Assembly (NCBI GenBank): GCA_029855935.1
Contig: JAGSHN010000012.1
Location: 192,001-256,000 of the forward strand
Length of the DNA stretch: 64,000 bases
Direction: 5' to 3'
From: Candidatus Thorarchaeota archaeon
GTDB taxonomy: Archaea; Asgardarchaeota; Thorarchaeia; Thorarchaeales; Thorarchaeaceae
The stretch's first letter is position 1; every line of letters begins with the position of its first letter. The notes under the pieces are model-generated. The model was not told the DNA's origin, did no database searches, and was given only the letters and a program-made list of their open reading frames with translations. Both the position numbers and the translations under genes were made by a program. Of this stretch, positions 14,312 to 58,154 are shown one piece after another.

Positions 14312-15241
14312 ATGTCTCAGGCGGAGCGGCCCAGGATGGACTTGGAACGTGCTCTGACCAAGCTCAGATACGACGACGAGGTCAGTGGATACGCTCTCAT
14401 CACCAACGATGGCGAGCCGTTCCTGTCCTTCTCGCTGCCTGAGGAGATACTCCCCAGTATCCGCGGTGCGATGAAGATACACTCTACATCCTTGAAGCTA
14501 ATGAACATCATGGCCGGCCCCTGGACAGTTGTCTTGGCTCGCGTCAATCCTGACTGGGTCCTTGCGACGGTCTTTGCAGAGGTGCAGTTGGGTATTGCGC
14601 TCCAGAAGACGCGCGATGTAGTGCGTCTTCTTGAACAGGTGAAGCTGCCTCCGCCCCCGTCTGCAAGACCTGCAGAATCGGCTGCTGAGGTCCCAACGAC
14701 CGCTGAGGCCCCGGGGGCAACGGAGCCAGCACTATCTGAAGAGCCCGCGGTCGCTCCCGCTAAGAAGACAAGGGTGACTCACGGTTGTGTGGTACATCGC
14801 GGACCGAGGTACGCCGAGGCGATGCGTCTGGGATCGGAGTTGAACCACAGGCTGCGTGATCTTGGAGCGTTCGCCATTGATGTCCTGCTCCTTGTCGACG
14901 AGGAGCGGACCGTGTTCAAGATTGCAGAGACCCTTGCAAGGTCTGTTGACAAGGTCATCGAGGTCGTGCGCTGGTCTGTATCGAACCAGATTGTCACCGT
15001 GGAGTGCCCGGAGGAACAGGAGTCTGGCGAGCGTGTCATTGTCGAGGTCCCCATCTTTGAGGGCGAGCTAAGCAAGGCCAAAGCTGAGCACAGGCCTGTC
15101 CTGGAGCTCTGCAAAGGGGAGTTGACTCTCAATGAGATTGCCAATCAACTCGGGATGACATACTTTGAGGCAATGCAGTGCATCCTTCCGTACCGCGGCA
15201 AGACTCTACGCTTTGTTAGCACCAGTCGTGTAGTTTCGTAG
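14312..15241 (+). CDS. Roadblock-like domain + Pro/Ala linker + two winged-helix domains (paralog 1)
   Basis: N-terminal alpha-beta-beta-alpha-beta-beta-beta-alpha pattern ending QLGIA; LPPPP linker; LLVDEERTVFKIAE and LCKGELTLNEIA wHTH-like motifs; clear paralog of 17124..18089. Confidence 0.75.
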   Translation: MSQAERPRMDLERALTKLRYDDEVSGYALITNDGEPFLSFSLPEEILPSIRGAMKIHSTSLKLMNIMAGPWTVVLARVNPDWVLATVFAEVQLGIALQKTRDVVRLLEQVKLPPPPSARPAESAAEVPTTAEAPGATEPALSEEPAVAPAKKTRVTHGCVVHRGPRYAEAMRLGSELNHRLRDLGAFAIDVLLLVDEERTVFKIAETLARSVDKVIEVVRWSVSNQIVTVECPEEQESGERVIVEVPIFEGELSKAKAEHRPVLELCKGELTLNEIANQLGMTYFEAMQCILPYRGKTLRFVSTSRVVS

Positions 15242-15256
15242 TGGAGGTGACGAGAG

Positions 15257-15763
15257 ATGGGAGTGAAAGGAAAACTCGCGTGGACATTAAAGATTGACAA
15301 AGTGGCGAAGCCACTGTTTCAGGCGACCTACCGAGAGCTGATGAACACGCTCATACAGACGTGCGACAATATCGAAGAGGTCAACAGGCGAATGAAGGAG
15401 ATTGGCTTTCGCGTTGGACAGGACCTGTTGATGGAGTACGCAGACAAGATACGAAAGCACGCCTCGACATTCGTGGAGTTCAGCAAGACACTTCAGCTCG
15501 CCTACAAGGTGAACAGCGGACAGGAGTTTACCGATGTGTGGATCAGTGAGGACGGTCGCGTGATCAAATATACTGACGACCATTGTGTGTTGTGTGAGGG
15601 CGTGGAGATTCGCGACATGCCCGGACTCCAGTATTGCGGTCTCATCTCCGGCGTGTTTCAAGCGGTCATGGACCTGCGTGGATTCAAGGCCGAGGCCTAT
15701 CAGGAGTCCTGTCGCGCGATTGGCGACTCCACCTGTCGCTGGACCATCCGGCTTCTTGAGTGA
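15257..15763 (+). CDS. Bet3/TRAPP-like V4R domain protein 1
   Basis: LFQATYRELM...EEVNRRMKEIGFRVG Bet3-like N-terminus; CVLC, YCGLISGVF, ESCRAIGDSTC V4R cysteines. Confidence 0.8.
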   Translation: MGVKGKLAWTLKIDKVAKPLFQATYRELMNTLIQTCDNIEEVNRRMKEIGFRVGQDLLMEYADKIRKHASTFVEFSKTLQLAYKVNSGQEFTDVWISEDGRVIKYTDDHCVLCEGVEIRDMPGLQYCGLISGVFQAVMDLRGFKAEAYQESCRAIGDSTCRWTIRLLE

Positions 15764-15786
15764 CCCCTAGTGGGCTAGCGAACATG

Positions 15787-15792
15787 TATAAA
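15787..15792 (+). promoter_or_regulatory. Putative archaeal TATA box for the 15852 membrane gene
   Basis: TATAAA in a GC-rich intergenic region about 60 nt upstream of the start. Confidence 0.45.
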
Positions 15793-15851
15793 TGGCGGGA
15801 GGTATCATGCAGTGGTGAAACGGTCCACGGAGACCAAGAGGAGGCAATGGA

Positions 15852-16352
15852 ATGGGACAGATCTCTGGCACGCTTGTGGGAATGGTCGTCGCGTTCCTTA
15901 TCACGTTCCTGATACTCATGTTTGGTGGTTCGATTCACGAGGATCTCATCCCCCCTGAGATCGTCGCGGACTTTCTTAGCAGGCCTGATCTTGAGCTCAA
16001 GCTTGCAGTGGTGGGAACAGTGATGTATCCACCCTACCTGGGGATGCAGCTTGGTTTCGGCGCTCAGGGTTCCACAATCCTGATGTTCCTCGCCTGGGGA
16101 ACCGGCGGTCTTATTGCTGGAGCTCTGTCTCGCGAGATCATTCCCGGCGTATTCGCAGCCATCTTCGCAGTCATCATCGGTGCGTTTCTGATGTGGCTGC
16201 TGATATTCTTTATCAGCACAACTGACTTCATGGCAATCTTTGGGGGCACTTCAATGTTGCTCCTTCAATTCGTTCTTGAGGGTGCTATATATCCCGCAAT
16301 TGCTGCAGTCGTGGGGAGTCTCCTCGGGAGCGGTGTCACGCGTGAGCGGTGA
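15852..16352 (+). CDS. Small multi-pass membrane protein (about 4 TM)
   Basis: Hydrophobic segments; WGTGGLIAG motif. Confidence 0.8.
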   Translation: MGQISGTLVGMVVAFLITFLILMFGGSIHEDLIPPEIVADFLSRPDLELKLAVVGTVMYPPYLGMQLGFGAQGSTILMFLAWGTGGLIAGALSREIIPGVFAAIFAVIIGAFLMWLLIFFISTTDFMAIFGGTSMLLLQFVLEGAIYPAIAAVVGSLLGSGVTRER

Positions 16353-16914
16353 TGGTGTCGCAATCATCTTCAGTGCCCAGCTCGCGTCCGCACTCAGAGC
16401 ATATCAGGGGTCGGGACTTGAACACCGCCCCGCACTCGCATCTGGTGAGTATCGACTCGGGGGGAGGCACGGTTCCCCCACGCGTCAACACCTCAACGGC
16501 AATGCTGGTCGGGAGGATGGTGACAAGGCTGACCTGGGAGAGCAGAATCCCCTGTGCGAAGACTAGGAACAGTGTCGTATTTCTCTCGGGAGAGTCCCAC
16601 AGCGACGGGTTAGAGATCAATAGCGCAGCAATGGCAAGAGCTGAGAGAACGGCTCCCAGCCACAGAGATGATCTGACGCTATTCCACCCTCTCTTGGCCA
16701 CGACTCCTGCGATGACGCCCATCAACAGCCAGGTAGGAAGATGCGTCAACGGGTTTAGCACGTGATCAACCACGCCCTGAACGCTGAGAAGATATTCTCC
16801 TCCCCGCAGGATGCGTGTCAGCACATCCGTAGAGCCTCTTATGCCTGACACCCAGACATCTGTGAGATAGGCTCCTACCAGTGCCGCGGCCAGCGCACCA
16901 CCAAAGTTTCTCAT
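16336..16914 (-). CDS. Multi-pass membrane protein with C-terminal zinc ribbon
   Basis: About 4 TM, WLLMGVIAG motif, CECG...CSECG; start taken at ATG 16914 (ORF extends to 16983). Confidence 0.78.
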   Translation of the reverse strand: MRNFGGALAAALVGAYLTDVWVSGIRGSTDVLTRILRGGEYLLSVQGVVDHVLNPLTHLPTWLLMGVIAGVVAKRGWNSVRSSLWLGAVLSALAIAALLISNPSLWDSPERNTTLFLVFAQGILLSQVSLVTILPTSIAVEVLTRGGTVPPPESILTRCECGAVFKSRPLICSECGRELGTEDDCDTITAHA

Positions 16915-17123
16915 CTCTCTCGACCTGTGATGTTGTCTGTGGCGCGGTCTTCCGCCCCTCTGGTGTGGGCTGTTGTCAGCCATTTAATGTTTCTGAACTG
17001 TGAGGTCACAACTCATTCGCCACAACTCGCAGACACGTCACCGCAATCCTTTTCTGATGTGCCTCCTCCCATATTCTCGAAGGCGACACGCCAGCGCCAG
17101 GGACCACAAGGTGTGTATCTGAC

Positions 17124-18089
17124 ATGTCCGGCGACCTTGAAAGAGCGTTATCCAAGCTCAGGTTTGATGATCAGGTCATTGGCTACTCCCTGATGACCAA
17201 GGGTGGCAGGCCGTTTGTCAGCTTTTCCTTTCCAGACGACCTTTTCCCGCGTGTCAAGGAGAGCATCAGCCTGTACAAGACCGACCTGAGACTAATGACC
17301 ATCGATACGGACAAGGGCCTTGTGGTTCTCGCTCCGGTCGACGACAACTGGATACTCACAGTCCTGTATGTTCCCGAGCTACAGCTGGGGTTGGCGATTG
17401 CCAAGACCAAGAACGTCCTGCGGATGCTTGAGGGGATCGAGCTGCCCCCGCCGCCTGAAGAGTTCGAGGAGGCCGTAGAGTCCAACTTGGAGGTTCTAGA
17501 GAGCATTGCGATGCAGGCCGCCTCCACCGCTGCTGAGGCGGCACCGACTGTCGAGGAGCCCGCCCCTGCTCCTGCTCAAGAGGCAGAGGAGCTCTCTCCT
17601 GAAGACTTTGTCGTAACATCCGATACTGTCCCCAAGAAGGGCGAGGCATATGCAACAGCTCTCTCTCTCGACTCTGACCTATATGATGAGATGAGAAAGG
17701 CCTACCGCAACTTCGGCTTTGACATCCTCATGCTCGTCGACGGGCGGTCCACGGTTGCAGCCATCGCAGACGCAATGTTCCAGCCTGTTGTCAAGGTGGC
17801 CGAGGTACTGAAATGGGCTGCCTCGAAGCGGATAGTAGAGCTTCCGAGAGCTGGTGAGGCGGCAGCGGAGGGGGTCACGAAGAAGCCGTCCCGTTTTGTC
17901 AAGTGTCCGCGATTCGAGGGCGACCTCTCAAAGGTGAAGCCCGACCACCTGGCGGTTGTGCGGCTGTGTGACGGCACACGGACGACGGAACAGATTGCCG
18001 AAGCCGCCGGGATACCTGCTCCGCGGGTCATCCACATTGTGGCGCTGTACCGCAAGCACGGTATGAAAATGATTGGCAAGACCATCTAA
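17124..18089 (+). CDS. Roadblock-like domain + linker + two winged-helix domains (paralog 2)
   Basis: DLERALSKLRFDD start nearly identical to paralog 1; LVDGRSTVAAIA and LCDGTRTTEQIA motifs. Confidence 0.75.
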   Translation: MSGDLERALSKLRFDDQVIGYSLMTKGGRPFVSFSFPDDLFPRVKESISLYKTDLRLMTIDTDKGLVVLAPVDDNWILTVLYVPELQLGLAIAKTKNVLRMLEGIELPPPPEEFEEAVESNLEVLESIAMQAASTAAEAAPTVEEPAPAPAQEAEELSPEDFVVTSDTVPKKGEAYATALSLDSDLYDEMRKAYRNFGFDILMLVDGRSTVAAIADAMFQPVVKVAEVLKWAASKRIVELPRAGEAAAEGVTKKPSRFVKCPRFEGDLSKVKPDHLAVVRLCDGTRTTEQIAEAAGIPAPRVIHIVALYRKHGMKMIGKTI

Positions 18090-18125
18090 TTCCTCAAACC
18101 CGACACACACCAGAGGTTCAAGGCA

Positions 18126-18599
18126 ATGGCGCGAATAGAGAACCCCCTACTTTTGAGCATCTACGGTCAGCTAGTGGACAAGATTCTTGCTGAAACGCAG
18201 AACATCGAAGAGGCCAATGAGCGTCTCCGTGAGCTTGGTCGCACTATGGCCGAGCAAATCTATCTCACCACGGACATCGTTGAGAAGACCAAGGACGAGG
18301 TCCTCACGAGAGAAGATGTTGCGAAGTTGGTTGAGGTGGTCTTCAGGGTTCTATTTGACCGCAAGCCCACAGAGATTGACATGGAAACGGCCCGCGGTTC
18401 TGTCCGGGTGAGCGACTCGAACTGCGTCTGGTGTCAGGACGTGAACTTGGAGGGGATGCCCGGTTTTGGCTACTGCGAAGTCTTCAGCGGCATTCTTGAG
18501 GCAATACTGAAGTACAAGGGCGTGGATGCACGTGTCTTCGAGGAGACTTGCAGGGCCACAGGAGGCGTGACCTGCTCCTGGAATGTACGTCTCGTATGA
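18126..18599 (+). CDS. Bet3/TRAPP-like V4R domain protein 2
   Basis: IYGQLV...NIEEANERLRELG; CVWC, YCEVFSGIL, ETCRATGGVTC. Confidence 0.8.
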   Translation: MARIENPLLLSIYGQLVDKILAETQNIEEANERLRELGRTMAEQIYLTTDIVEKTKDEVLTREDVAKLVEVVFRVLFDRKPTEIDMETARGSVRVSDSNCVWCQDVNLEGMPGFGYCEVFSGILEAILKYKGVDARVFEETCRATGGVTCSWNVRLV

Positions 18600-18683
18600 T
18601 GGAGAAGACTCCGTGGCAGCCCATGTCACAGGAAAGCACTTATCCCCGGCTGTGGACGGGGTATCTGCCCGGAGGTATCTGAA

Positions 18684-19232
18684 ATGTCTAAAGAGCCTGA
18701 GGTTATCAAGTGGTGGCGTGGTAGGCTCAAGGAGCGCGACCTGATGCGTGCGTTCTTTGCCAAGACGTGGACGAAGATTGGAAACAGAATCGCAGTTATG
18801 TTCCCGGAGAGAGTACGTGATCTCTACTACAGCGCGGGACGGCTTGCTGGGCTTGAGGCGCAACAGGAGTACTTCAGGATTGGAAAGCAGAAGCCGCCTG
18901 GGGACTTCAAGGGCATCGTAGAATTCATCAAGATGGCCCTCTCCACCATCATTGTCCCCTTTGGAGATGTCGAGATCCAGAAGCTCTACAAGCTCTGGCT
19001 TGATGAAGAGGCCATAATTGAGATTCGTGACAACCCTTATGCATCGGGTCTTCACAGCGAAGAGCCCTCGTGCTATTTCCTCAGGGGTTTCATTGAGGCT
19101 GTTCTTGAATACCTGACAGACTTCAATAGAATCGAGTACGAGACGCTAACGGTCGTCGAGGAAACTTGTATAGCCACGGGAGCTCCATCTTGTACATTCC
19201 ACCTCAAGTTGACATACCCCGCCAAAGGCTGA
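18684..19232 (+). CDS. V4R domain protein 3
   Basis: YSAGRLAG, DNPYA, PSCYFLRGFI, EETCIATGAPSCTF. Confidence 0.8.
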   Translation: MSKEPEVIKWWRGRLKERDLMRAFFAKTWTKIGNRIAVMFPERVRDLYYSAGRLAGLEAQQEYFRIGKQKPPGDFKGIVEFIKMALSTIIVPFGDVEIQKLYKLWLDEEAIIEIRDNPYASGLHSEEPSCYFLRGFIEAVLEYLTDFNRIEYETLTVVEETCIATGAPSCTFHLKLTYPAKG

Positions 19233-19306: not shown

Positions 19307-20035
19307 ATGCGTCGCTCTGCAGCTTTACTCTGTCTGGCCTTTGCAATGACCGGGATAGTAATTCTACTCAACTTCCAGCTGCAGACCGGCAGCGACGCTC
19401 TCGCTCTCCACGATGCGAGTCCCTCTGTTCCAGCCAGTGGAAGTGGTCTTGCAGTCGCTCCGTTCGGTCTTGCTCTTGGGACGATGCCCCTCAATACTTG
19501 GACATCAGGTTCTCTATTGCTCTCCGGAGGATGCCTGTTTGTCATCGCGACTGTGGAGGTCGGAGTGCCATCTGGGAGAGCACAGTCGTTGCGAGAACGC
19601 GTTGTCGGCGAGATTGCTGCAAATCCGGGGATTCATCTCAGGGAGCTGTTGCGGAGCGTCGGCTGTGCGATGGGTGCACTACAATACCACGTGAAAAACC
19701 TGGAGAGGGAGGGTCTGATAGTGTCTGTGAGGACGGGCAACTTGAAGCACTTCTTCGTTGCTGGCTTCTCGTCTGATGCGAACGTGCTGCGTCTGGTTGC
19801 TCTTCTCAGGAATCCGACAATTGCTGCCATTGTCAGAGAGTGTACCGCCTCCGGGCCGACTACGCAGGCCAGTCTGAGTAGAACACTGTCGATGGACAAG
19901 AGCCTCGTCTCCTACTATGTGGGTCTTCTACTCAAGGCAGGAGTGTTGAAGACGATTCCTGTGTTTGGAAGGGAACGCCCACTGACTCTGACCGACTGGG
20001 CTCGTGATGCCCTGAGTCAGTGGTCGGCACAGTGA
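19307..20035 (+). CDS. Membrane-anchored winged-helix transcriptional regulator (double wHTH)
   Basis: N-terminal hydrophobic segments, then NPGIHLRELLR...GALQYHVKNLE and a second HTH; ATG 19307 follows a GAGGTGG SD-like sequence. Confidence 0.78.
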   Translation: MRRSAALLCLAFAMTGIVILLNFQLQTGSDALALHDASPSVPASGSGLAVAPFGLALGTMPLNTWTSGSLLLSGGCLFVIATVEVGVPSGRAQSLRERVVGEIAANPGIHLRELLRSVGCAMGALQYHVKNLEREGLIVSVRTGNLKHFFVAGFSSDANVLRLVALLRNPTIAAIVRECTASGPTTQASLSRTLSMDKSLVSYYVGLLLKAGVLKTIPVFGRERPLTLTDWARDALSQWSAQ

Positions 20036-20169
20036 AGCGACCGATATTCCTATCTTCATCCTTATCTTGACGACTGTACCCAGTGCAACCCACTGTACCG
20101 GCAATCCAAGAAACACGTCACAGGAACGTATCCAAGGTGTCCGACGATAGTACATCTGGAGGTCCCTCC

Positions 20170-20904
20170 GTGGAGGAGGATGATGAAGAGATCATACTGG
20201 TTGCTGAGAGCGAGTCGGCTGGCGTCAAGTATGCCACTCGGCTCGTAGATGTCTCTCGAGTCTACGAGATAGGGTCACGTAAGATTGTCGCGTTGCACGA
20301 TGTCAATCTTGAGGTACGCCCCGGTGAGTTCGTGGTGGTTGAGGGTCCCTCTGGATCCGGCAAGACTACTCTTCTCAACATCATTGGGGCGATTGACTAT
20401 GCCACAGAGGGACGCGTCTTTCTGATGGATGTGCCGATACAGGACTATGACGAGTCGTTTCGTGCCACGTTTCGTCTGACGAATACTGGCTTCGTCTTCC
20501 AGAGCTATAACCTGATCTCAACGCTGACCGCCCTGGAGAACGTGATGTTTCCGATGCAGCTCACAGAGCATCCTCGGGCAGCGCTGAAGGAGCGTGCCAA
20601 GTCGCTACTGGAGCGAGTGGGTCTGGACGACCGGTGGGATCATCTGCCGTGGCAACTCAGCTCCGGAGAACAACAACGTATCGCAGTGGCAAGGGCGATG
20701 GCCAATGATCCACCGCTAATTCTTGCTGACGAGCCAACAGCGAATCTTGACGAGGAGAGCGCGGACCTTGTACGTCGCATCCTCCGCGAGCTGAATGAGG
20801 CCGGCAAGACGGTCATTGTGATGACACACGACCCCAAGATAATTGGCACAGAGGATGCAAGGCACTTCAAGATGCAGAGAGGGGAGTTGACAGAGATTGT
20901 CTGA
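20170..20904 (+). CDS. ABC transporter ATP-binding protein (LolD/MacB family)
   Basis: GPSGSGKT, LSSGEQQR, ILADEPTANLD; start approximate. Confidence 0.92.
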   Translation: MEEDDEEIILVAESESAGVKYATRLVDVSRVYEIGSRKIVALHDVNLEVRPGEFVVVEGPSGSGKTTLLNIIGAIDYATEGRVFLMDVPIQDYDESFRATFRLTNTGFVFQSYNLISTLTALENVMFPMQLTEHPRAALKERAKSLLERVGLDDRWDHLPWQLSSGEQQRIAVARAMANDPPLILADEPTANLDEESADLVRRILRELNEAGKTVIVMTHDPKIIGTEDARHFKMQRGELTEIV

Positions 20905-22750
20905 GGCTCCGGACTACGCTCTGAAGGACCTCAAGAGACGCCCGTTCCAGTCGGGTGTCATGCTACTCTCTATGACTACTGTCGTGGCATTCACAGTCTT
21001 TCTGTTCCTCTTTGCCAACACATTGCTGTATGTCACCGCGTACGTCACATCGGCCGCCTTTATGGGGTCGCTCTATGTGTTCCTCGAGACTTTCATCTGG
21101 GGGACACTTCTCTTTGTTCTTCTACTGGGCCTAGTGGTCTTCTCTGCTGTCATCTCTCTTGAGATGGTCAGCCGTCGAAAGGACATTGGTCTGATGAAGG
21201 CGATAGGAACTCTCACCGACACTGTCTTTGACCACTTCATGGGTCAGGCTGTGATTCTGCTCGTCACCAGCGCGGTCCTCGGTGCGAGCATCGGTGTTGT
21301 GATGTATTTTGCGGGAACACTATGGTTGTCCTCCCTTGTACCTCCCGTCAGATTTGAGATGGCGTTCCCCTTCTTGCAGATACTAGTCCTAGTAGGGCTC
21401 TATCTTCTATCGGGATACTTTGCAGCCCAGAAGCCCATCTATGACGCTGTGCAGGAGTCTCCCATATCAGTACTGAATCCCCAGCTGGGGACACGTGTAC
21501 GCCACGTCGGCCTCCTTGACTCCTTCGGGCTCTCCTTTCGTGTGGCGACGAAGGCCATGGGCCGAAGGCTTCGAGGATCGCGGAGAACGCTCCTCTCTCT
21601 GTTCATGAGCATCGCATTGGCCTCTGCGCTCTGGGTTGGCGGCGGCATTGTCAACACTACGATGGACTCCTACATAGTGCGCTCAATGGGGTCGAATGTT
21701 GTGGCAATCGGTCACTCGTCCGTTCTATCAGCGTACTATCAGTCCTACTCGCTTGGCGAGGCCCCTCCCACTGTCAACACCTCGCTGACAGAGAGCTCCC
21801 TGATGGTCCCCACGGACCTCGTAGGGGAGGTGGCCTCTGTGGATGGCGTCAGAGCGGTCGAGCAGAGACTGATCGCGTATTCGGACGTCTCAGAGGGGCC
21901 AGCCATAGTCTGGAACCCCACTCTTCAGCAATGGGAGGAGATAGGTGACAACCGCAACGGTACTGCACTGCTCATTGGTGTGGACTGGGACAGTACCATC
22001 TCGGACTGGTACTTCGAGGGCGAGCCCATCAACGCAAGCAACCAAGTGCTAATAGGTGGTGAGATGGCCGACTCTATGTTCGAGGACCCACTAGTCCAGA
22101 CGCTACGGGTGCGTGGCGCCTCTTTCGAGATACGTGGCATTGCCTTCGATGTAGCCCACGGCGGGATGGTGGCGCTGATGCCCGTTTCTGCCATGCAGGA
22201 CCTGTGGGGAATCTCGGGGGCCAACCTTGTCCTCGTACAACTTGAGGAGTACCGGCAGGATGTGATCTCTCAGATCACCTCCATTGCTCGGAGTCACGGT
22301 CTGGACATCTTTCTCCAGGAGGAGGTCGTACGGCACAATCTGGCAGTGGTTGGCGGTCTGTGGCTGCTGTTGCAGCCCCTGCCAGTGATGGCACTGATCA
22401 GTGCCTTCTTTGCTCTCACAAACTATCTGCTCGTGTCGGTGTTCAGCAGGTTCCGAGACTACATAATTATGAGGTCCATTGGTGCCAAGCCTCTCTTCAT
22501 TGCGAAGACAATAGCAGCAGAGGGGATACTGATGGCGTCAAAAGCGGGAATACCCGCAATTGTGGGGTCCATCCTCTTCGGCGCCTACCTGCTGGTGCCA
22601 GAGGCGACCGTGCCCTCGGTGCTGTACTTGCCGCTCTCATTCATCCTGATGTTTGGTGCTCTACTGATGGTGTCCGTGCTGGCAGCCATCCCGGTGTATA
22701 TGATCTTCAGCAGGCGGATGGAGTTCAGGGTGTCAGAGTTCGGTGTCTGA
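20897..22750 (+). CDS. FtsX/MacB-like ABC permease
   Basis: Two FtsX motifs (RRKDIGLMKAIG, RFRDYIIMRSIG) and an extracellular domain. Confidence 0.88.
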   Translation: MSEAPDYALKDLKRRPFQSGVMLLSMTTVVAFTVFLFLFANTLLYVTAYVTSAAFMGSLYVFLETFIWGTLLFVLLLGLVVFSAVISLEMVSRRKDIGLMKAIGTLTDTVFDHFMGQAVILLVTSAVLGASIGVVMYFAGTLWLSSLVPPVRFEMAFPFLQILVLVGLYLLSGYFAAQKPIYDAVQESPISVLNPQLGTRVRHVGLLDSFGLSFRVATKAMGRRLRGSRRTLLSLFMSIALASALWVGGGIVNTTMDSYIVRSMGSNVVAIGHSSVLSAYYQSYSLGEAPPTVNTSLTESSLMVPTDLVGEVASVDGVRAVEQRLIAYSDVSEGPAIVWNPTLQQWEEIGDNRNGTALLIGVDWDSTISDWYFEGEPINASNQVLIGGEMADSMFEDPLVQTLRVRGASFEIRGIAFDVAHGGMVALMPVSAMQDLWGISGANLVLVQLEEYRQDVISQITSIARSHGLDIFLQEEVVRHNLAVVGGLWLLLQPLPVMALISAFFALTNYLLVSVFSRFRDYIIMRSIGAKPLFIAKTIAAEGILMASKAGIPAIVGSILFGAYLLVPEATVPSVLYLPLSFILMFGALLMVSVLAAIPVYMIFSRRMEFRVSEFGV

Positions 22751-36064: not shown

Positions 36065-36598
36065 TTGACCGATACCTTTGATGTCATGCGGAAGGTCGTT
36101 ATGATTGGAGCGGGCGGGAGCGGCAAGACAGCTCTTGTCAATAGGTTTCTCACTCAGAAGTTCAGCGAGCAGTACATTGTCACAATCGGATCTCAGTTCG
36201 CGGTCAAGACTGTCAGCGTGAAGGATGGCCGGGGCAATGATGTTGTCGTGAAGCTCCTCGTATGGGATCTCGCAGGTCAAGAGCGTTTCGATTTTATTCG
36301 CTCCAGCTACTACAAGGGTGCAAAAGGTGCTCTCCTCGTCTATGATGTCACTCGCAAGAGCACTTTCCTCGAACTGCCCAAATGGATTGAGGAGACAGAG
36401 GCGGCTTTGGGCACGAGAATCCCGATAATCCTTCTGGCCAACAAGGTCGACCTTGTCAACGAGCGCGTCATCACATCCGAGATGGGGATGGCCTTTGCGC
36501 GAGAGAACCGTCTCGATGGCTATCTTGAGACGAGCGCTCTGACAGGCCAGAATGTGGAGGAGGCCTTCCATCGTCTCGCCGAAGCTACGATCAAATGA
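36065..36598 (+). CDS. Rab-like small GTPase
   Basis: GAGGSGKT, TIG, WDLAGQERF, NKVD, ETSA. Confidence 0.93.
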   Translation: MTDTFDVMRKVVMIGAGGSGKTALVNRFLTQKFSEQYIVTIGSQFAVKTVSVKDGRGNDVVVKLLVWDLAGQERFDFIRSSYYKGAKGALLVYDVTRKSTFLELPKWIEETEAALGTRIPIILLANKVDLVNERVITSEMGMAFARENRLDGYLETSALTGQNVEEAFHRLAEATIK

Positions 36599-46000: not shown

Positions 46001-47821
46001 TTGATTCACAATACGTTCCTTGTACGAGAGTCGACGAAGGAGGTCTTGGCTCACACTAGGTACTGGCCGGTTGAGGTCGATGAGAAGGACCTTGAGGAGT
46101 TCATCCAGACACGCGCCGAGCTGATGAGTGCCGACGAGGAGATAGAGGAGATTCCTCTGATTCTTGGCGACCACAAGTTTCACGGCTGGCCCTGCGGTGA
46201 TGACCTGCTCTTGGTGTTCGTCACCGACACGCGGGAGGACGAGCACGCAATATTCGAGCGAATGGAGAAGGCCGCCAAGTCGCTGAAGAACAGCATCAAG
46301 AAGCTGGGACTAGAGGAGACAATTGAGAAGTATGAGAAGATCATTGAGCCATCGGTCATCACCCGGCTGAAGATTGCACTGGTTGGCGAGGGTGGTGTGG
46401 GCAAGACGACAACTCTCCATCTGCTGTTGGGCGACACTCCTCCTACGCAGTACGTGCCGACAATTGCGCTCAATCTTGAGACTGTGGAGAACATCCGCTT
46501 TGGCAACTACTCACTCGTGCTCTGGGACTTTGCCGGCCAGGAGCGGTTCAGAAACCTCTGGAGGTTCTATTTCCACGGCGCTGACGTGATCTTTCTCGTA
46601 TGTGACTCTACCCTCAGGAACGTGCTGATAAGCAAGGACATACTGAAGCTCATCAAGCGTGACGCACCCAAGGTCCCAGTGTTTGCGCTTGCCAACAAAC
46701 AGGACCTCCCGAACGCGATGAAGCCCGAGGTCATCCAGAAGATACTTGGCATACCGACCTATCCCATGGTCGCAATTGACAAGGAACGTCGGGATGAGAT
46801 GCTACGTATTCTGATGAACGCAGCAGCCCAGTACGTCGGTGTGGCTCTTCCGGACCTGCCAACATCGGAGCTTCTCAAGTTCAGCGAGGAGGCTGCCGAG
46901 CAGGCCGCGGCGACGCCAAGCCTACGGGCAAGTTCAAAGGGAGCAGCAGTGGCGGCCGAAACGGGGGCGATTGACTCCGGAGCAGAAGATGAGGAAGAGG
47001 ACTTTGGCGACATCGAGGTCGACGACCTTGAGACAATCGAGATAGTGGAAGAGGTACTCGTGGACGAGGAGGGCCACGTAATCGACGAGCTCTCCGATGA
47101 ATACGAGGTTGTCGAGGAGGTTGTTGAGGAGGTCGACGAGGGAGTCTCCGTGTCAGAAGGGCAGGAACCCGTTTCTATCGCATCAGCCGAGGAGACAAGC
47201 ATGTCCGAAGAAGAGGGTGGGGTGGCCAGCAGCCGCGAGATTGCAAAGGCCATCATATCCGAGAGGTTGGACGCGGACGAGATCATAGAGGAGGAGCTAG
47301 AGCAGGCTCCGGATGATGCCCTGCAGAGCGCCCTTGAGGCCCTGTCCTCAGACGAGGTCCCTGCTAACCACAGTGAGATGCCACCCCCTGTTGTGAGAGA
47401 GGAGGAGAAAGAGGAGCTGACGAAGATTCTTGGGCTTCTTGATGACAAGGCCCCAAGCTCTGAGGAAGAGGACGAACTCGCGCCCACCTCAGTTAGACCC
47501 GATGAGATTGAGGACTTCACCCGTGTTCTGGAATCACCCCCTGAGGCTGGCAAGGAGGAATCAGCGCCCAGTGAGGAGGAGGCCGAGTCTGTCTCTGCTG
47601 GTGAGGACAATGTTGGGGGACCGGAGTCCGCCTCTGCTCGTGAAGGTGATGTGGAGCTGGAGGAGTCGGCCCCTGCCGGTAATGAAGATGTGGACGAGGC
47701 CGAGTCTACTCCTTCCGGCCACGTAGATGTCGAACAAGAGGAGACTGCCCCTGCTGGTACCAAGGAGGCGACAGAGGACGACACAGACGACTACTACGAC
47801 TATTTCGTTGATGATTGGTAG
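46001..47821 (+). CDS. Longin-like + Arf/Sar-like GTPase fusion with long acidic tail
   Basis: GEGGVGKTT, YVPTI, WDFAGQERFRNLW, NKQD; about 120 aa N-terminal domain; about 300 aa D/E-rich tail. Confidence 0.87.
   Translation: MIHNTFLVRESTKEVLAHTRYWPVEVDEKDLEEFIQTRAELMSADEEIEEIPLILGDHKFHGWPCGDDLLLVFVTDTREDEHAIFERMEKAAKSLKNSIKKLGLEETIEKYEKIIEPSVITRLKIALVGEGGVGKTTTLHLLLGDTPPTQYVPTIALNLETVENIRFGNYSLVLWDFAGQERFRNLWRFYFHGADVIFLVCDSTLRNVLISKDILKLIKRDAPKVPVFALANKQDLPNAMKPEVIQKILGIPTYPMVAIDKERRDEMLRILMNAAAQYVGVALPDLPTSELLKFSEEAAEQAAATPSLRASSKGAAVAAETGAIDSGAEDEEEDFGDIEVDDLETIEIVEEVLVDEEGHVIDELSDEYEVVEEVVEEVDEGVSVSEGQEPVSIASAEETSMSEEEGGVASSREIAKAIISERLDADEIIEEELEQAPDDALQSALEALSSDEVPANHSEMPPPVVREEEKEELTKILGLLDDKAPSSEEEDELAPTSVRPDEIEDFTRVLESPPEAGKEESAPSEEEAESVSAGEDNVGGPESASAREGDVELEESAPAGNEDVDEAESTPSGHVDVEQEETAPAGTKEATEDDTDDYYDYFVDDW
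47585..47758 (+). repeat. Degenerate 39-bp (13 aa) tandem repeat in the acidic tail
   Basis: Units at 47585, 47624, 47663, 47702, 47741: ESVSAGEDNVGGP/ESASAREGDVELE/ESAPAGNEDVDEA/ESTPSGHVDVEQE/ETAPAG. Confidence 0.75.
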
Positions 47822-52368: not shown

Positions 52369-52509
52369 TTCCGCCGCAAGCGGACGGTTTCCTCCCCCTG
52401 ACTCTGCATCAGTCTCCTCTTGGATGGATAGATTCAACGGCAAATCATTTAACACCCAGAAGTGTACGGGTTTCCAGAAAGGAACGAGCTCAGATTCAGG
52501 TGCAGTCAA

Positions 52510-53211
52510 ATGAAGATTGTAGTCACGGGGCCCCGGGCGTCGGGCAAGAGTCGTCTGATACATAACATAACGAATGGTGCTTGCATTAACATTGAGCGTG
52601 GTGGGGTCACCATTGCTATGGATCACGGTGTGGCCGATGTTGATGGAATGACGGTCTTTCTCTTCGGTACTCCTGGACTCCTTCGTTTCCGGACGATGCG
52701 CAAGATTCTGAGCTCAGGTGCTGACGGTATCATCTTTGTTGTGGACTCCAGCGATGCAGAGGCGGATGCACGTGCCAAGCTCTTCTTCAGGGAGATTGCG
52801 TTCTTTCTCCCTGGTGTTCCGTGCGTTGTTGCGGCAAACAAGCAGGATCTTGAGAACGCCCGATCTGTCGACAAGGTCCGAGAGAGTATGAAATTCCTCG
52901 CGGGGGTCCCGGTCATCCCGTGCTCTGCAGAGACGGGGCTCAACGTCGACAGCATGCTGCGCACCCTCCTGTATCTCACTATGATGCAGTGGAGTTCGGT
53001 CTTCGCCAAGTTCGCCGAGTACAGCGGCCGCAGTGATGGAATGAAGCGTCTGATGCAAGACCTCAAGATGGAGCGTGAGCAGGTCGTCGGCTATCTTCGC
53101 AGGTTCGAGCTCCGCAAGATCCTCGATGTGAGCCTTGGCGACGAGCAGTTCACTGTTCGGGAGCCCGTGAAACCGATACTTGAGAATCCAGCACTCCTCA
53201 TTCGTCGCTAG
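52510..53211 (+). CDS. MglA/CvnD-like small GTPase with C-terminal winged-helix-like extension
   Basis: GPRASGKS, TIAMDHG, LFGTPG, FVVDS, NKQD, CSA. Confidence 0.87.
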   Translation: MKIVVTGPRASGKSRLIHNITNGACINIERGGVTIAMDHGVADVDGMTVFLFGTPGLLRFRTMRKILSSGADGIIFVVDSSDAEADARAKLFFREIAFFLPGVPCVVAANKQDLENARSVDKVRESMKFLAGVPVIPCSAETGLNVDSMLRTLLYLTMMQWSSVFAKFAEYSGRSDGMKRLMQDLKMEREQVVGYLRRFELRKILDVSLGDEQFTVREPVKPILENPALLIRR

Positions 53212-53281
53212 GCGTGCTTGGCCTGTAGTTGTAGAAAGAATCAAAAGATGGCGTCGGGGCAACCTTCTCATAGCACCGGAT

Positions 53282-54148
53282 GTGGCAGCAGTGGAAGAGA
53301 GCGAAGATGTAGTAGACCCAGCTGATCTCCTTGAGATGGCAGCAGAGGCCAAGAACAAGGGTGACAGTCACGCCGCTGCACGCCTGTTCAATACTGCAGG
53401 AAACATCTACATGTCCGTTGGCGAATACGAGGACGCTCTGGAGGCCTTCCAGAGGGCCCTGCAGCTTTTCCGTGAGGTCAACGATGAGGCTAGCGTGGGC
53501 GACGCTCTCTACAATCTCGGTGCCGCGCAGATGAATCTTGAGAAATGGGAGGAGGCTGCCAAGTCCTGCGAAGAGGCGGTCAAGATATTCAAGCGGATAT
53601 CGAATGACGCAGGATCGGCCGATGCGACATACGTCCTCGCCCTTGTGAAGAAGGGGATGGGTCAGTTTGAGGAGGCATTGGGCCTCTTCAAGAAGGTCCA
53701 GCGGGCTTACAAGGCTTTGGGAAACGACCAGGGCGTGGCTACGGTTCTGATGGACATAGGCAGTGCCTACGCAGACAGAGAGGACTGGGTCAATGCTGAG
53801 AAGTTCTTCAAGAAGGCACTGAAGATATACCAAGAGCTCGAGGATGCTGCGGGAATTGGTGATGCATACTCCCTACTCGGTGACATTGCTGAGGTGAACA
53901 ACAATCAGAAGAAGGCGGCTGAGATGTTTGTAGAGGCCGCCGAGAGCTATCTCAAGGCCGAGCTGTTTGACGTGGCCCGTGAGGCTGTGGAGCGTGCAGA
54001 GGGCAAGCTCTGGGACATTCCGAAGTCCACCCGTCGGAGACTGAGGCGTCGCATCGATGACATAATTGATGCTCTTCCCGAGGAGACCTCGACGGAGGAG
54101 GATGACACAGATCTCGACGATGACCTTCTCGACCTTGGTCTTGAGTGA
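53282..54148 (+). CDS. Tetratricopeptide repeat protein
   Basis: About 6 repeats of roughly 40 aa (GNIY..GEYEDALEAFQRAL); acidic C-terminal tail; start approximate. Confidence 0.87.
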   Translation: MAAVEESEDVVDPADLLEMAAEAKNKGDSHAAARLFNTAGNIYMSVGEYEDALEAFQRALQLFREVNDEASVGDALYNLGAAQMNLEKWEEAAKSCEEAVKIFKRISNDAGSADATYVLALVKKGMGQFEEALGLFKKVQRAYKALGNDQGVATVLMDIGSAYADREDWVNAEKFFKKALKIYQELEDAAGIGDAYSLLGDIAEVNNNQKKAAEMFVEAAESYLKAELFDVAREAVERAEGKLWDIPKSTRRRLRRRIDDIIDALPEETSTEEDDTDLDDDLLDLGLE

Positions 54149-54314
54149 CTCGCCAAGAGTCGGTCAGCTGGTCTTCAGTCACGGGCCTATGGTGAGGTGT
54201 ACGGCCGAACCCTGAAACATCGGTGTGTGTGGTCGGAGTGGGTCGGGTGCTCAAGAAAACTCTATTTGAGTTGGCCGACCATTACGTCCTGCTATCGCCA
54301 GGAGTGTACGTCAA

Positions 54315-57300
54315 TTGATTCGGCGGCCCCCCTTTCCCGTTCTTGTCATCTTCCTCGTCGTGATTGGTGGCATTGCGATGCTTCCGACTATGCCTCGCAA
54401 CACTTCACCTTCGACAGACACCTCCAGTGTTTCGCCTCGTCTGGCCCAGTCGGTATTGGCATCGAACCGAACCCCTCTCAGATCATTGACGGCCGTCGTC
54501 AGCGATCCCACCTCCATCACGGACGAGCTCGCGTACATCGCCGCAGTGCCAACCGGTGTGTTCTATGCCGCAGGAAAACAATATGTTTCCCCTGTCCTGA
54601 TGGTCGATGGCTCCCGGTCCGAATCGTGGCTTGTCGATGACTGGGTCGAATATCTTGAGACTGACGGGGGTACCACACAGTTCACGGTCATTGGGCCCTC
54701 CCCTAGTGGTGACATTGACTCCATCTGGGCTCGTCTTGGCGCCCAGCCGTTTCCGTGGATTCAGTCAGCCTCGCCGTACGATGTGGCTGCACAGCTTGCC
54801 GTCGCCAACTGGAGACACTCCGATACGGCCGTTGTGGCAGTTGTTGAGTCAGGCTTCAGTCCTCTGGTCACCACAAGCGACTCATCATCCTTCACGTTGT
54901 CAGACGACCCGATGACGGAGATTCATCCCTCGGTCACAGTCACGTCCTCGGACCCTGTTCAGGTCAAGTTCACTCCTCCAACTGGGACTGGCTGGATACA
55001 GGCATCATTCGATTGGACCGGGTCGGCATATTTCACTCACACACTCACCGACCCCAACGGGGTAATCGTAGACTACTCGGTCCGCAGCCAGACCTATCAG
55101 GAGCGATTCTCCTCCTACGTGGACCACCCAGTGCCGCTCCAGTTCTGGGTGCCGTGTACAGCGGAGGGCGAGTGGACGCTCACATTGTATCCTGAGGTGG
55201 ACATCTCCTCTCCTGTTCCGCTCGATAGCACTATAGTCTTTCATCCCGGGCGTTCGGTGACCATCACCGTGCCAGCCAACGCACGATCTCTTGAGGTGAG
55301 TGCATCGTGGGATAATGCCGCGACCGACATCAACCTGGCACTGATCGATCCCACTGGGCATCTGAGTGCATGGGCCCCAGCTGGCAGTGTGATATCAAAT
55401 CCTGGGTCAGAGAGCGCCTCTGTGGACTTTCCTATGCCCGGTGAGTGGACTCTCATTGCCGCATGGCTCAATGCTACAGGAGAGACAAACAATGGTCAGT
55501 TCGAGTGGGATATCACAACAATTGATGGAAACCTCGGAACCTACATGGAATCCGCCGCGAACGGTGCGGTCTTGGCCTCGCTCTTGAACGCACCTCTACT
55601 GTACGTCACTCCGTCCGATGTACCGGATGTCACTCTGTGGGCCATCCAGCGTCTGGGTGTTTCCTACCTCTTCCTTGTCGATCCGTCCTCCATGCAGACC
55701 TCCTCGCTGCTCTCGACACTGAGCGCAGAAGCGTTTGTCACCAATCTGAACAACTATCCCCTTGTTTCTCACTGGATTCGGGTTCTCTCCTCCACCTATG
55801 ACGTCGTGGTGACAGCACCACTCGGTGCCGGCGACGAGCTCTTCGCAGCAGCCGCCTATTCAGGGGCGGTCCACGGCGCACCAGTGTTCTCGCTGTGTGG
55901 TGACGACAATCTCGTGACTACCCGTGCCGCAGCGACTTGGGTGCCATATCTCATCGGACCTGAGATTGACGTCTATGTGACGAGCAGATACACGACGAGG
56001 ACCGAGAACGGTTGGTACGACGAGCGAATACCCAACCGATACGCGATGGAGCTCTCCGCCACCACCTTCAAAGACTTTCTCGATGGCCGGAATGCGTACA
56101 ATGAGAGTGAACCTCAGTCGGTCGTCATTCTCTCGCCTGTTGATGTGATCAAGCCGAGCTTTGATCGCTCTCTTCAGAGTCACTTCTCGCCTGGTCGAAT
56201 CCCGGCCACGACCGCAGCACTGGCCACCGTGATGGTGGCGCGTGCGGCACTCCACCGTTTTCTGTTTCTTATCGCCGACTCTGCTGAAGACGCACTGGTG
56301 ACTATGTATGCCTACACTCAGGACGCTGGCTTCGTGGATAACAACTTCAACTACTACGTAGTCGACCAGTACGAGAACTCGACACGTATCATTCAGGAGT
56401 CCGGTCTCACCGCTCTGTCGCACATTGGCGTGGATGAGGTGTTCTCAGCAATTGCTTCGCAGGTGTCACTGTGGACAATCAGTACGCACGGGACACTGAC
56501 TAGATATCCTACGGATCCGCCTGAGCGGCCAGGCGGCACGGGCCTCTTCTCTCTGCGTGATGTTGATGCGCCCTATGGTATGGAGACATCCTCCGAACGT
56601 GACGCGAATGGCGACCATCTCGTCAATCCAGTTCTCTTCGATCCCGAGGCCTCGCATCACGTCATCAAGAACACCGACGACCTTGAGGGTGCTGTGGACA
56701 ACATCGGTTCTCCCATTGTGATCATCACTGCCTGCCTGCTGGGCGGTTCCCGGCTACCGCTGATGCTCATGGAGCACGGTGCAGTCGGCGTTGTCGCCTC
56801 TCCGCGTACCGTCTATTTCCAGCCTGCTGCAATGCTGTCCCTCTTCTTGATGGACCGCCTGAGGGAGGATGCTCCCATTGGTCAGGCGCTCAGCTATGCC
56901 GTACGAATGGTCTCAATCGACTATACGGACCCGTTGCCCTCAGGCGACCCACGCGACTACGCCAATCAGCATATTCTCTATGGAGACCCTGGGGTCAGGC
57001 TGTTCGCCCCTTCGACCGACCCGCACGTGCCCGCTGTCGACGCCAACACTCTGGATATCAGTGGTCACAGACCGGGGCGTGGTCTACCACTTGTGGCGGC
57101 GGTCGCTGACAATACGACCCTTCCCACGCTGCTGGAGGGTCAGTCCGTGGATCACATCACCTACACCTCGTCGAACATCTCAGCTCTCTCACCGTGGATG
57201 TTCCTCCATCGCGCTGTCATCATCGAGCCTGACTACTCTGCCGCGCTTGCAGGCAGTCTCCAAGCGATGTCCGTGTCGCTGCACGAGTATGTCCGCGGAG

Positions 57301-58154
57301 GAGGCGCGCTCGTTGTGATGGGAGTCACACCCGAGTCGACGTGGATACCCTGGCCTGTCTCATATGATGGTTCCCAGACGGGTGAGATCATATCGATTGA
57401 CGATCCTGGCCATCCTCTTGTCTCTCTACCGAACAGCATCCCCGAGAGTACTCCGTATGCGGGTGTTCTCACAGGCCTGTGGGAGAACTTCACAGTCGTG
57501 GCATCCACTTCAGACGGCCAGGGCGCAGTGATGGTGGCTGGAGTGATGGGTCACGGCAAGATTGCCCTGATGACCCTCAGGCCCACTGGGGACGCGCTGG
57601 CAGCACTAGCTCAGAATGTTGCAACATGGTATGTCCGGCCGTCAATCTTTCTCTCCTCTCTGTCCCTCAGCGAATACATCATCTGGGGTGGTGACAGAGT
57701 CTCGGTGCTGATTCACCTCCTTGATGGTGAGGGTCGTGGAGTGACGGGCGCCAGTATTCGTGCATCGATAAACTCCTCAGATGTCAGTGCCTACGTATCG
57801 GAGACTGGCGACGGCTACTATCAGATACTGTTGGACGAGGGGTGGACAACTGCGCACCCAGGTGTCCTCACAATTCGTATTGAGGCCTCCAAGGAGGGCT
57901 ATGACACTCTTACAGCCATCATTCCCGGCTTCATGTACATTCGTCCCTCGCCGTGGCTGGCCATAGGGATTGTCGGCGCCGTCTTTGCCGGAATCATGGT
58001 CCTGTACGTATATCGGAAGCGGAAGAGGGGCGAGAGGGTCCTGCCGTCTCTTCGTCGCGGAAAGAAGTCGAGGCATAGGCCACCGAGAGAGGGCAAGAAG
58101 CGTCCCGAGAAGGCGGAGAAGGAGGAGGACTTGAAAGAGTTCTTTGGGGTGTGA
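54315..58154 (+). CDS. Large membrane-anchored surface protein with CWB2-like repeats, beta-sandwich domains and a C25 (gingipain-like) peptidase domain
   Basis: N-terminal signal/TM; PVLMV, APLLYV and APVF repeats; THG...TAC...LYGDP; GGGALVV; C-terminal TM plus basic tail. Confidence 0.72.
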   Translation: MIRRPPFPVLVIFLVVIGGIAMLPTMPRNTSPSTDTSSVSPRLAQSVLASNRTPLRSLTAVVSDPTSITDELAYIAAVPTGVFYAAGKQYVSPVLMVDGSRSESWLVDDWVEYLETDGGTTQFTVIGPSPSGDIDSIWARLGAQPFPWIQSASPYDVAAQLAVANWRHSDTAVVAVVESGFSPLVTTSDSSSFTLSDDPMTEIHPSVTVTSSDPVQVKFTPPTGTGWIQASFDWTGSAYFTHTLTDPNGVIVDYSVRSQTYQERFSSYVDHPVPLQFWVPCTAEGEWTLTLYPEVDISSPVPLDSTIVFHPGRSVTITVPANARSLEVSASWDNAATDINLALIDPTGHLSAWAPAGSVISNPGSESASVDFPMPGEWTLIAAWLNATGETNNGQFEWDITTIDGNLGTYMESAANGAVLASLLNAPLLYVTPSDVPDVTLWAIQRLGVSYLFLVDPSSMQTSSLLSTLSAEAFVTNLNNYPLVSHWIRVLSSTYDVVVTAPLGAGDELFAAAAYSGAVHGAPVFSLCGDDNLVTTRAAATWVPYLIGPEIDVYVTSRYTTRTENGWYDERIPNRYAMELSATTFKDFLDGRNAYNESEPQSVVILSPVDVIKPSFDRSLQSHFSPGRIPATTAALATVMVARAALHRFLFLIADSAEDALVTMYAYTQDAGFVDNNFNYYVVDQYENSTRIIQESGLTALSHIGVDEVFSAIASQVSLWTISTHGTLTRYPTDPPERPGGTGLFSLRDVDAPYGMETSSERDANGDHLVNPVLFDPEASHHVIKNTDDLEGAVDNIGSPIVIITACLLGGSRLPLMLMEHGAVGVVASPRTVYFQPAAMLSLFLMDRLREDAPIGQALSYAVRMVSIDYTDPLPSGDPRDYANQHILYGDPGVRLFAPSTDPHVPAVDANTLDISGHRPGRGLPLVAAVADNTTLPTLLEGQSVDHITYTSSNISALSPWMFLHRAVIIEPDYSAALAGSLQAMSVSLHEYVRGGGALVVMGVTPESTWIPWPVSYDGSQTGEIISIDDPGHPLVSLPNSIPESTPYAGVLTGLWENFTVVASTSDGQGAVMVAGVMGHGKIALMTLRPTGDALAALAQNVATWYVRPSIFLSSLSLSEYIIWGGDRVSVLIHLLDGEGRGVTGASIRASINSSDVSAYVSETGDGYYQILLDEGWTTAHPGVLTIRIEASKEGYDTLTAIIPGFMYIRPSPWLAIGIVGAVFAGIMVLYVYRKRKRGERVLPSLRRGKKSRHRPPREGKKRPEKAEKEEDLKEFFGV

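Follow-up and report, generated by a model that had tools for sequence, protein, structure and literature searches.

A Roadblock-winged-helix and Bet3-like gene pair, present twice in a Thorarchaeaceae genome, and its possible role in small-GTPase regulation

Background

The core of the eukaryotic TRAPP complex is a guanine nucleotide exchange factor (GEF) for Rab GTPases and combines the Bet3-family subunits Bet3, Trs31 and Trs33 with the longins Bet5, Trs23 and Trs20. NPRL2 and NPRL3 are the paired subunits of another eukaryotic regulator, GATOR1/SEACIT, a GTPase-activating protein (GAP) for RagA/Gtr1. This work concerns a seven-gene locus that brings proteins resembling parts of both complexes together in an archaeon. 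It occupies positions 14312-19232 of a window of 64,000 nucleotides (nt) from Candidatus Thorarchaeota archaeon (assembly GCA_029855935.1, contig JAGSHN010000012.1, positions 192,001 to 256,000), and all coordinates below are those of this window. The assembly belongs to Thorarchaeaceae, is 2.97 Mb in size and 97% complete, and its close homologs are named Thorarchaeota.

Both of the protein families discussed here are regarded as eukaryote-like in Asgard archaea, and each has so far been investigated separately. Thor-TRAPPC3 was crystallised as a zinc-binding homodimer, with structure 7YH2 obtained from AB25 and 7YH3 from SMTZ1-45 (Tran et al. 2024, PMC10933270). The same study published a longin-TRAPPC3 fusion for Heimdall and reported that the regulators of small GTPases could not be matched to their partners from genome layout (PMC10933270). 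An NPRL2-like family was found by Liu et al. in most metagenome-assembled genomes (MAGs) of Thor; the main text of that work mentions neither TRAPP nor V4R.

Structure of the locus

The seven open reading frames (ORFs) are arranged in the order A1-B1-M1-(M2 reversed)-A2-B2-B3, and the coordinates and strands of all seven agree with a first-pass annotation made from the sequence alone. A1 (14312-15241, + strand) consists of a Roadblock domain, a linker rich in Pro, Ala and Glu (with the motif LPPPP) and two winged-helix domains. A2 (17124-18089, + strand) has the same organisation, with the Roadblock domain at residues 1-105, a disordered linker at about 112-160, winged helix 1 at about 170-240 and winged helix 2 at about 256-321. 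The two proteins can be aligned from end to end with 36% identity (E 7e-55) and are therefore paralogs, as had been proposed. Since all A1 orthologs begin at the second methionine (MDLER/MELER), eight codons downstream of the ORF start, the true start of A1 is probably the ATG at 14336 and not 14312.

Each A gene is followed immediately by a gene for a protein of the Bet3/V4R superfamily. B1 (15257-15763, + strand), a TRAPPC3/Bet3-like protein with a CxxC...C...C zinc motif, begins after a gap of 15 nt from A1, and B2 (18126-18599, + strand), the ortholog of the crystallised Thor-TRAPPC3, after a gap of 36 nt from A2. The third member of the fold at this locus is B3 (18684-19232, + strand), which is of the V4R type. 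The two remaining genes, M1 and M2, encode membrane proteins and lie between the two A-B pairs. No RNA data set was listed as containing the locus or A2-B2; the sole data set listed is a hydrothermal-vent metagenome, perhaps the one from which this DNA came.

Conservation of the A-B pairing

The coupling of A and B is genuine and ancient. One and the same order, DUF72, PfkB, A1, B1, M1, M2 (reversed), A2, B2, B3, a transmembrane winged helix-turn-helix (TM-wHTH) protein, ABC, ABC and a lysyl-tRNA synthetase (LysRS)-like gene, is kept in all 18 Thorarchaeaceae loci compared (18/18), with protein identities of 45-85%. Both A paralogs are present in 75 of the 76 Thorarchaeaceae genomes, about 2.9 kb apart. 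Matches to the Pfam family TRAPP (PF04051) occur in 72 of these 76 genomes, mostly two in each, and wherever both are listed they stand beside the A genes. The sister family (f2) possesses one full-length copy of A, and there the A-B2-B3 block stands alone, with B3 kept after B2. A short form of A is found in all 19 genomes of a Hodarchaeota-labelled family (f12).

Outside Thorarchaeaceae, an A-type winged-helix gene lies directly beside one or two Bet3-like genes; the order varies, and stop and start codons often overlap. The A-type winged helix was recognised in these lineages by the motif LCDG..T...IA, with hidden Markov model E values of 1e-7 to 3e-13, while the type of the N-terminal domain (Roadblock-, longin- or zinc-ribbon-like) was read only from the sequence and from sub-threshold Pfam matches (Fuz_longin_1 at 0.012 and 0.039). 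Read in this way, the order is B-B-[longin-like + wHTH] in Borrarchaeum and [Roadblock-like + wHTH]-B-B in Freyarchaeum, and in Odinarchaeia a zinc-ribbon-like or longin-like N-terminus is joined to the wHTH and followed by B. The pair is also encountered in Baldrarchaeia and in contigs whose B protein clusters with Bathyarchaeota proteins. In a scan of GTDB with one genome per species, the A-type wHTH gene was located directly upstream in 10 of the 11 closest B loci, these ten belonging to Baldr, Jord, Frey, Njord and one MAG labelled Nitrososphaerota. The pair thus spans at least eight differently named lineages, with changed order and changed N-terminal domains. In addition, the protein P0128/P0262 (296 amino acids) has an N-terminal domain, read from its sequence as longin-like, fused to a Bet3-like domain, and thereby recalls the fusion known from Heimdall.

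To judge from these comparisons, the constant partner of the Bet3-like protein is the A-type winged helix, whereas the platform domain that precedes it varies. The view of the first-pass annotation that the retained A-B pairing reflects functional coupling is supported, the order being fixed within Thorarchaeaceae and the pair itself recurring in many other archaeal lineages. The pairing appears to be undescribed in the literature, in agreement with the novelty claimed for the architecture; that claim does not extend to the parts, which are known, as the B family and probably the A family have already been published as eukaryote-like Asgard proteins.

Two tandem Bet3-like genes without an adjacent A-type gene are present in some Jordarchaeales and Baldrarchaeum loci (L054:3434-4513 and L070:5001-6039), while other loci of the same classes are paired, and several paralogous Bet3-like loci are likely to exist per lineage. 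In a Chloroflexota MAG (L083:4268-5294), a V4R/Bet3-like gene is immediately preceded by a Roadblock gene, and adjacency of Roadblock and V4R may therefore occur also in bacteria.

Bet3-like and V4R-type proteins

B1 and B2 share 27% identity over 155 aligned residues (E 2e-31), and the similarity of B3 to B2 is confined to the C-terminal, cysteine-bearing part (E 2e-6). Pfam TRAPP PF04051, with a curated cut-off of 27, is matched by B1 at 35.5 bits and by B2 at 28.1 bits, and these are the only two matches in this genome. B3 has no PF04051 match and is assigned to Pfam V4R PF02830 (39.1 bits, cut-off 31, 7.9e-10); its sole match in PDB is the V4R protein MJ1460, at 0.037. B2 matches PDB entry 7YH2 over its full length (residues 1-157) at 7.6e-73 and 7YH3 at 4.8e-71, and by these alignments it is the Thor-TRAPPC3 ortholog. 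Without the aid of a profile, a search of PDB with B1 gives 7YH3 (2.2e-24) and eukaryotic TRAPPC3 (6AQ3, 6.6e-8) and, at E up to 1, no V4R chain. The four zinc-binding cysteines (B1 numbering: Cys 110, 113, 127 and 160) do not vary among 31 B1/B2 sequences.

A search of 1.84 billion representative proteins with a B1/B2 profile returned only 128 matches, which include eukaryotic TRAPPC3 at about 1e-10, among them that of a beetle. Those of 140-320 amino acids in length (102 proteins), together with B1-B3, made up an aligned set of 105 B-like proteins, of which 77 match TRAPP and 24 match V4R. In a quick tree, rooted on B3, B1 and B2 are placed beside a clade that contains the eukaryotic proteins, with weak support (SH-aLRT, an approximate likelihood ratio test, 81-86). 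The first-pass annotation had named nesting of the B proteins among ordinary prokaryotic V4R sensors as a point that would count against its proposal. On the Pfam and TRAPPC3 matches and this weakly supported tree, B1 and B2 are instead assigned to the TRAPP/Bet3 side of the superfamily. A prediction of the A2 + B2 complex, in which each protein had its own alignment, gave a score of 0.23 (mark 0.32) and weighs neither for nor against binding.

Roadblock and winged-helix proteins

In the AF2 model of A2 (pLDDT, the model's own confidence score, 86), a Roadblock domain of topology a-bb-a-bbb-a is connected by a disordered linker to two winged helices. Although the Pfam match of the A Roadblock domain to Robl_LC7 is only sub-threshold (0.07), the modelled domain (residues 1-110) resembles p14/LAMTOR2 at Z 13.5, MK-D1 Roadblock3 at 13.4 and MglB at 12.3, and it also matches a Streptomyces Roadblock (MglB and Streptomyces at Z 11-12). 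LAMTOR2, MglB and the Asgard Roadblocks are all GTPase platforms, and these matches were therefore counted in favour of a GTPase regulator.

For the whole chain of A2, the best Foldseek matches are NPRL2/Npr2 (9o5a_H at 6.7e-7, about 354 aligned columns). When the C-terminal half is folded by itself (pLDDT 91), the two highest-ranking of 48,161 representative chains are NPRL2 (8fw5_B, Z 9.9, root-mean-square deviation 2.3, 75 residues) and Npr2 (8adl_S, Z 9.7), with the next chain at 8.0, and the nine best Foldseek matches of this half are all NPRL2 or NPRL3 (E 1e-3 to 0.09). Peptide binders of the PqqD/RRE type are also found among the matches of this half, and DNA-binding regulators are located lower, at Z of about 6 or less. 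In the predicted models, the arrangement of C-terminal winged helices after an N-terminal platform domain is like that of NPRL2 and NPRL3, at the level of the fold only. The A family is probably the NPRL2-like family of Liu et al.

In the loop before strand 2 of A, G28 and P30 are nearly invariant and form a G-x-P motif, which is lost in the sister family and in the Hodarchaeota-labelled form. An arginine between the two is present only in the A2 clade. A catalytic arginine finger and a GP motif have been described for the GATOR1 platform domain (PMC12290439). Winged helix 1 is net acidic, with mean charges of -1.5 and -1.2, which argues against DNA binding by this domain. The A-type winged helix of relatives gives sub-threshold matches to DUF742 (0.0026-0.0045).

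Membrane proteins M1 and M2

M1 (15852-16352, + strand) is a small multi-pass membrane protein with about 4 transmembrane segments by hydropathy. M2 (16336-16983, - strand) has a basic N-terminal tail, about 4 transmembrane segments and a C-terminal zinc ribbon (CxxC...CxxC). Their genes are convergent with an overlap of 17 nt, and M2 is divergent from A2. Neither protein belongs to a Pfam family, and no sequence similarity between them was detected (BLASTP E 3.2), so that M1 and M2 are unsupported as paralogs at the sequence level. The atlas neighbours of M2 are hypothetical proteins found only in Asgard archaea, some with a zinc ribbon. In the Hodarchaeota-labelled family, the short form of A adjoins M1- and M2-like genes in 9/9 loci from two genera, in an orientation unlike that of Thor. 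M1 and M2 are tied to A and not to B, because this family keeps the association of A, M1 and M2 while PF04051 is matched in none of its 19 genomes.

Association with small GTPases

One association with a GTPase is found in another lineage. In contig L057 (3501-5773), an operon encodes a Bet3-like protein, a Robl_LC7 protein (3.6e-10), a [longin-like + A-type wHTH] protein (1.2e-9) and a Ras/Roc GTPase (2e-27), with overlaps of 11 and 4 nt. Its proteins occur also in a MAG labelled Thermofilum sp. ex4484_82.

A second association is found in the sister family, where a gene for a small GTPase with a C-terminal extension is divergent from A-B2-B3. Its ortholog in the window (52462-53211, + strand, Pfam Ras/Arf/SRPRB) shares 58% identity with the sister-family protein (L031:8003-8713) and lies 33 kb from the locus. 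It is the first gene of a row at 52462-58154, followed by a TPR/SNAP-like gene (53180-54148) and a gene for a protein of 1279 amino acids with a weak peptidase C25 match (54315-58154). In the sister-family genome G025, the same trio of GTPase, TPR/SNAP-like and large protein directly adjoins the A-B2-B3 genes. The GTPase at 52462-53211 is regarded as a weakly supported candidate client. The suggestion of GTPase regulation thus draws on homology, on one operon in another lineage and on one adjacency in the sister family.

The Rab-like gene at 36065, which the first-pass annotation proposed to model together with the A and B proteins, does encode a genuine Ras-family GTPase (4e-49). It lies 17 kb from the locus and is not conserved next to the module, no other link to it was found, and it was rejected as a partner. 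An ORF of 606 amino acids (46001-47821) contains a small-GTPase-like region with 34% identity to the 36065 protein over 126 residues.

Neighbouring genes

Downstream of B3 stands a gene for a membrane-anchored protein with two winged-helix-turn-helix domains and two hydrophobic segments (19307-20035, + strand; Pfam HTH_HVO_0163_N 1e-13), for which 19307 is an internal ATG. It is followed, in the block 19307-22750, by an ABC ATPase and a permease of 617 amino acids, and this holds for every Thorarchaeaceae locus examined. The downstream context gene is kept only in Thorarchaeaceae and is not found after B3 in the sister family.

Proposed function and alternative explanations

The locus may be understood as an archaeal module of two genes, present in two sister copies of ancient origin; in this module, A would be an adaptor and B a zinc-stabilised Bet3-fold protein with a hydrophobic pocket. 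A1 and A2 would pair through their Roadblock domains, as in the NPRL2/NPRL3, MglB or LAMTOR pairs; each A would hold a Bet3-like dimer, probably through its winged helices, and M1 and M2 would hold the assembly at the membrane. The whole would regulate a small GTPase as a platform of some kind, be it a GAP, a GEF or a scaffold, and a lipid or another hydrophobic ligand bound in the pocket of the Bet3/V4R proteins might gate this platform. A probability of roughly one half is given to such a membrane-associated hetero-oligomer that regulates a small GTPase and is perhaps ligand-gated.

A number of observations count against this proposal. No GTPase gene adjoins the A-B module in this genome, the nearest being 17, 27 and 33 kb off; none was found at distances of up to about 7 kb from the loci of Borr, Frey, Odin, Jord and Hod, nor within the approximately 3.5 kb fetched on each side of the Baldr module. 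The lineage of the L057 operon is rare, with only two close homologs of its wHTH protein. The likeness of A to NPRL2 does not extend to the sequence: no NPRL2 chain in PDB is matched by A with a single sequence or a profile, Pfam NPR2 matches neither A1 nor A2 at E up to 1, and PF06218 (NPR2) has 0 matches in the whole genome, 97% complete, at E up to 0.1, as in the control genomes. PF12257 (IML1/DEPDC5) likewise has no match in the genome, a search without a positive control, as the control genomes gave none either. Furthermore, the N-terminal domain of A has the Roadblock topology and not the longin topology of GATOR1. Thor-TRAPPC3 was diffuse in HeLa cells, and only ligand binding was proposed for it (PMC10933270). 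Synteny inside Thorarchaeaceae alone is weak evidence, because the flanking housekeeping genes are syntenic too.

Among the alternatives, the best placed, although rather doubtful in our opinion, is that of a split one-component transcription regulator, in which B and B3 sense a hydrophobic small molecule and A dimerises through its Roadblock domain and binds DNA through winged helix 2, with M1/M2, the ABC transporter or the locus itself as targets. V4R is the ligand sensor of PoxR-type regulators, and Thor-TRAPPC3 has internal cavities (PMC10933270). Winged helix 2 is net positive, at +4.6 in the A2 clade and +3.1 in the A1 clade, which leaves room for nucleic-acid binding and also tells against the GTPase platform, and most of the sub-threshold Pfam matches that the winged helices give fall in HTH families that bind DNA. 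Different lineages have different genes beside the pair, as expected for a portable regulator, and GTPase genes are usually not adjacent to it. Several observations count against such a role. Besides the acidity of winged helix 1, the third helix is largely hydrophobic in both winged helices, and the C-terminal half is structurally most similar to the winged helices of NPRL2 and NPRL3, which bind protein and rank ahead of the DNA-binding regulators. Roadblock and longin domains, as well as the longin-like-Bet3-like fusion, typify GTPase platforms, and one operon holds both a Roadblock and a Ras-like GTPase.

Handling of membrane lipid or another hydrophobic ligand without any GTPase, with the Bet3/V4R proteins carrying the ligand to or from M1/M2, perhaps for the ABC exporter, and A acting only as a scaffold, is unlikely. 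Mouse TRAPPC3 binds palmitate, and ligand transport was speculated upon by the authors of the Thor-TRAPPC3 study (PMC10933270); M1 and M2 are conserved with A, and the ABC ATPase and permease are constant downstream of the locus in Thorarchaeaceae. The ABC genes, however, are unlinked to the pair outside Thorarchaeaceae, the Hodarchaeota-labelled genomes keep M1/M2 with A though no Bet3-like gene was found in them, and the Roadblock domain and NPRL2-like winged helices would be left unexplained. Finally, mere inheritance of gene order by seven independent genes, as the preserved order of the unrelated flanks (DUF72, PfkB kinase, LysRS-like) in Thorarchaeaceae might suggest, is very improbable in view of the fusion protein and of the persistence of the pair in at least eight lineages, in which the order and the N-terminal domains have changed and stop codons overlap with start codons.

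A further reading may be considered, which we put forward only tentatively and hold to be rather less than an even chance: a hetero-oligomer of Roadblock/longin-winged-helix and Bet3-fold proteins could be the common forerunner of TRAPP, a GEF, and of the longin-winged-helix GAPs of the NPRL2/3 type. As part of the same tentative reading, the Thorarchaeota version would be a membrane-tethered, lipid-gated regulator of Asgard small GTPases, with a pseudo-symmetric A1-A2 core flanked by B dimers. The conserved two-gene module, the fusion protein and the operon with a Roadblock protein and a Ras-like GTPase make such a forerunner testable, and the B component has already been expressed and crystallised. 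Action of such a complex on a GTPase would show that regulators of the TRAPP and GATOR1 types have a pre-eukaryotic assembly in common. Should it instead prove to be a ligand-sensing transcription factor, this would be a warning not to infer trafficking from folds that resemble those of eukaryotes.

Comparison with known systems

MglA/MglB and the actinobacterial conservons (CvnB Roadblock, CvnC DUF742 and CvnD GTPase) resemble the present system in the Roadblock fold, and the L057 operon combines Roadblock, wHTH and small GTPase in the manner of a conservon. They differ in that the Thor locus joins Roadblock and winged helices in one chain, adds a Bet3-fold protein and contains neither a CvnA-type sensor kinase nor a GTPase.

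Thor-TRAPPC3 (7YH2/7YH3) is the closest known relative of the B proteins, with B2 as its ortholog and B1 as its paralog, and with the four-cysteine zinc site and the Pfam TRAPP match in common. In the published study the protein was treated alone, as a homodimer and possible ligand binder, and no mention of its gene neighbours, the paralog B1 or the A partner was found (PMC10933270). Eukaryotic Bet3, unlike Thor B, has no zinc site and acts as part of TRAPP, together with longins.

The parallel with TRAPP that was drawn in the first-pass annotation is upheld in part. It stands for B1 and B2, which are Bet3-like, and the general likeness to the TRAPP core includes Bet3-fold subunits encoded with a platform protein of the longin/Roadblock class, several Bet3-fold paralogs per locus and the longin-like-Bet3-like fusion in relatives. 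It does not stand for A, in which the platform domain is a Roadblock with winged helices, which the TRAPP longins lack, nor for B3, which is of the V4R type and not of the Bet3 type. With B3 an ordinary V4R-type protein, the three B proteins resemble the three TRAPP paralogs of the Bet3 family only superficially. The module also occurs, unlike a TRAPP core, in contigs whose proteins cluster with TACK-labelled MAGs.

GATOR1 has no counterpart of the Bet3-fold partner that is encoded here. NPRL2 and NPRL3 (Npr2 and Npr3 of SEACIT in yeast) are nevertheless collinear with A, having an N-terminal platform of the longin/Roadblock class followed by winged helices, and the NPRL2-NPRL3 heterodimer may be likened to A1 and A2, two paralogs that are encoded together.

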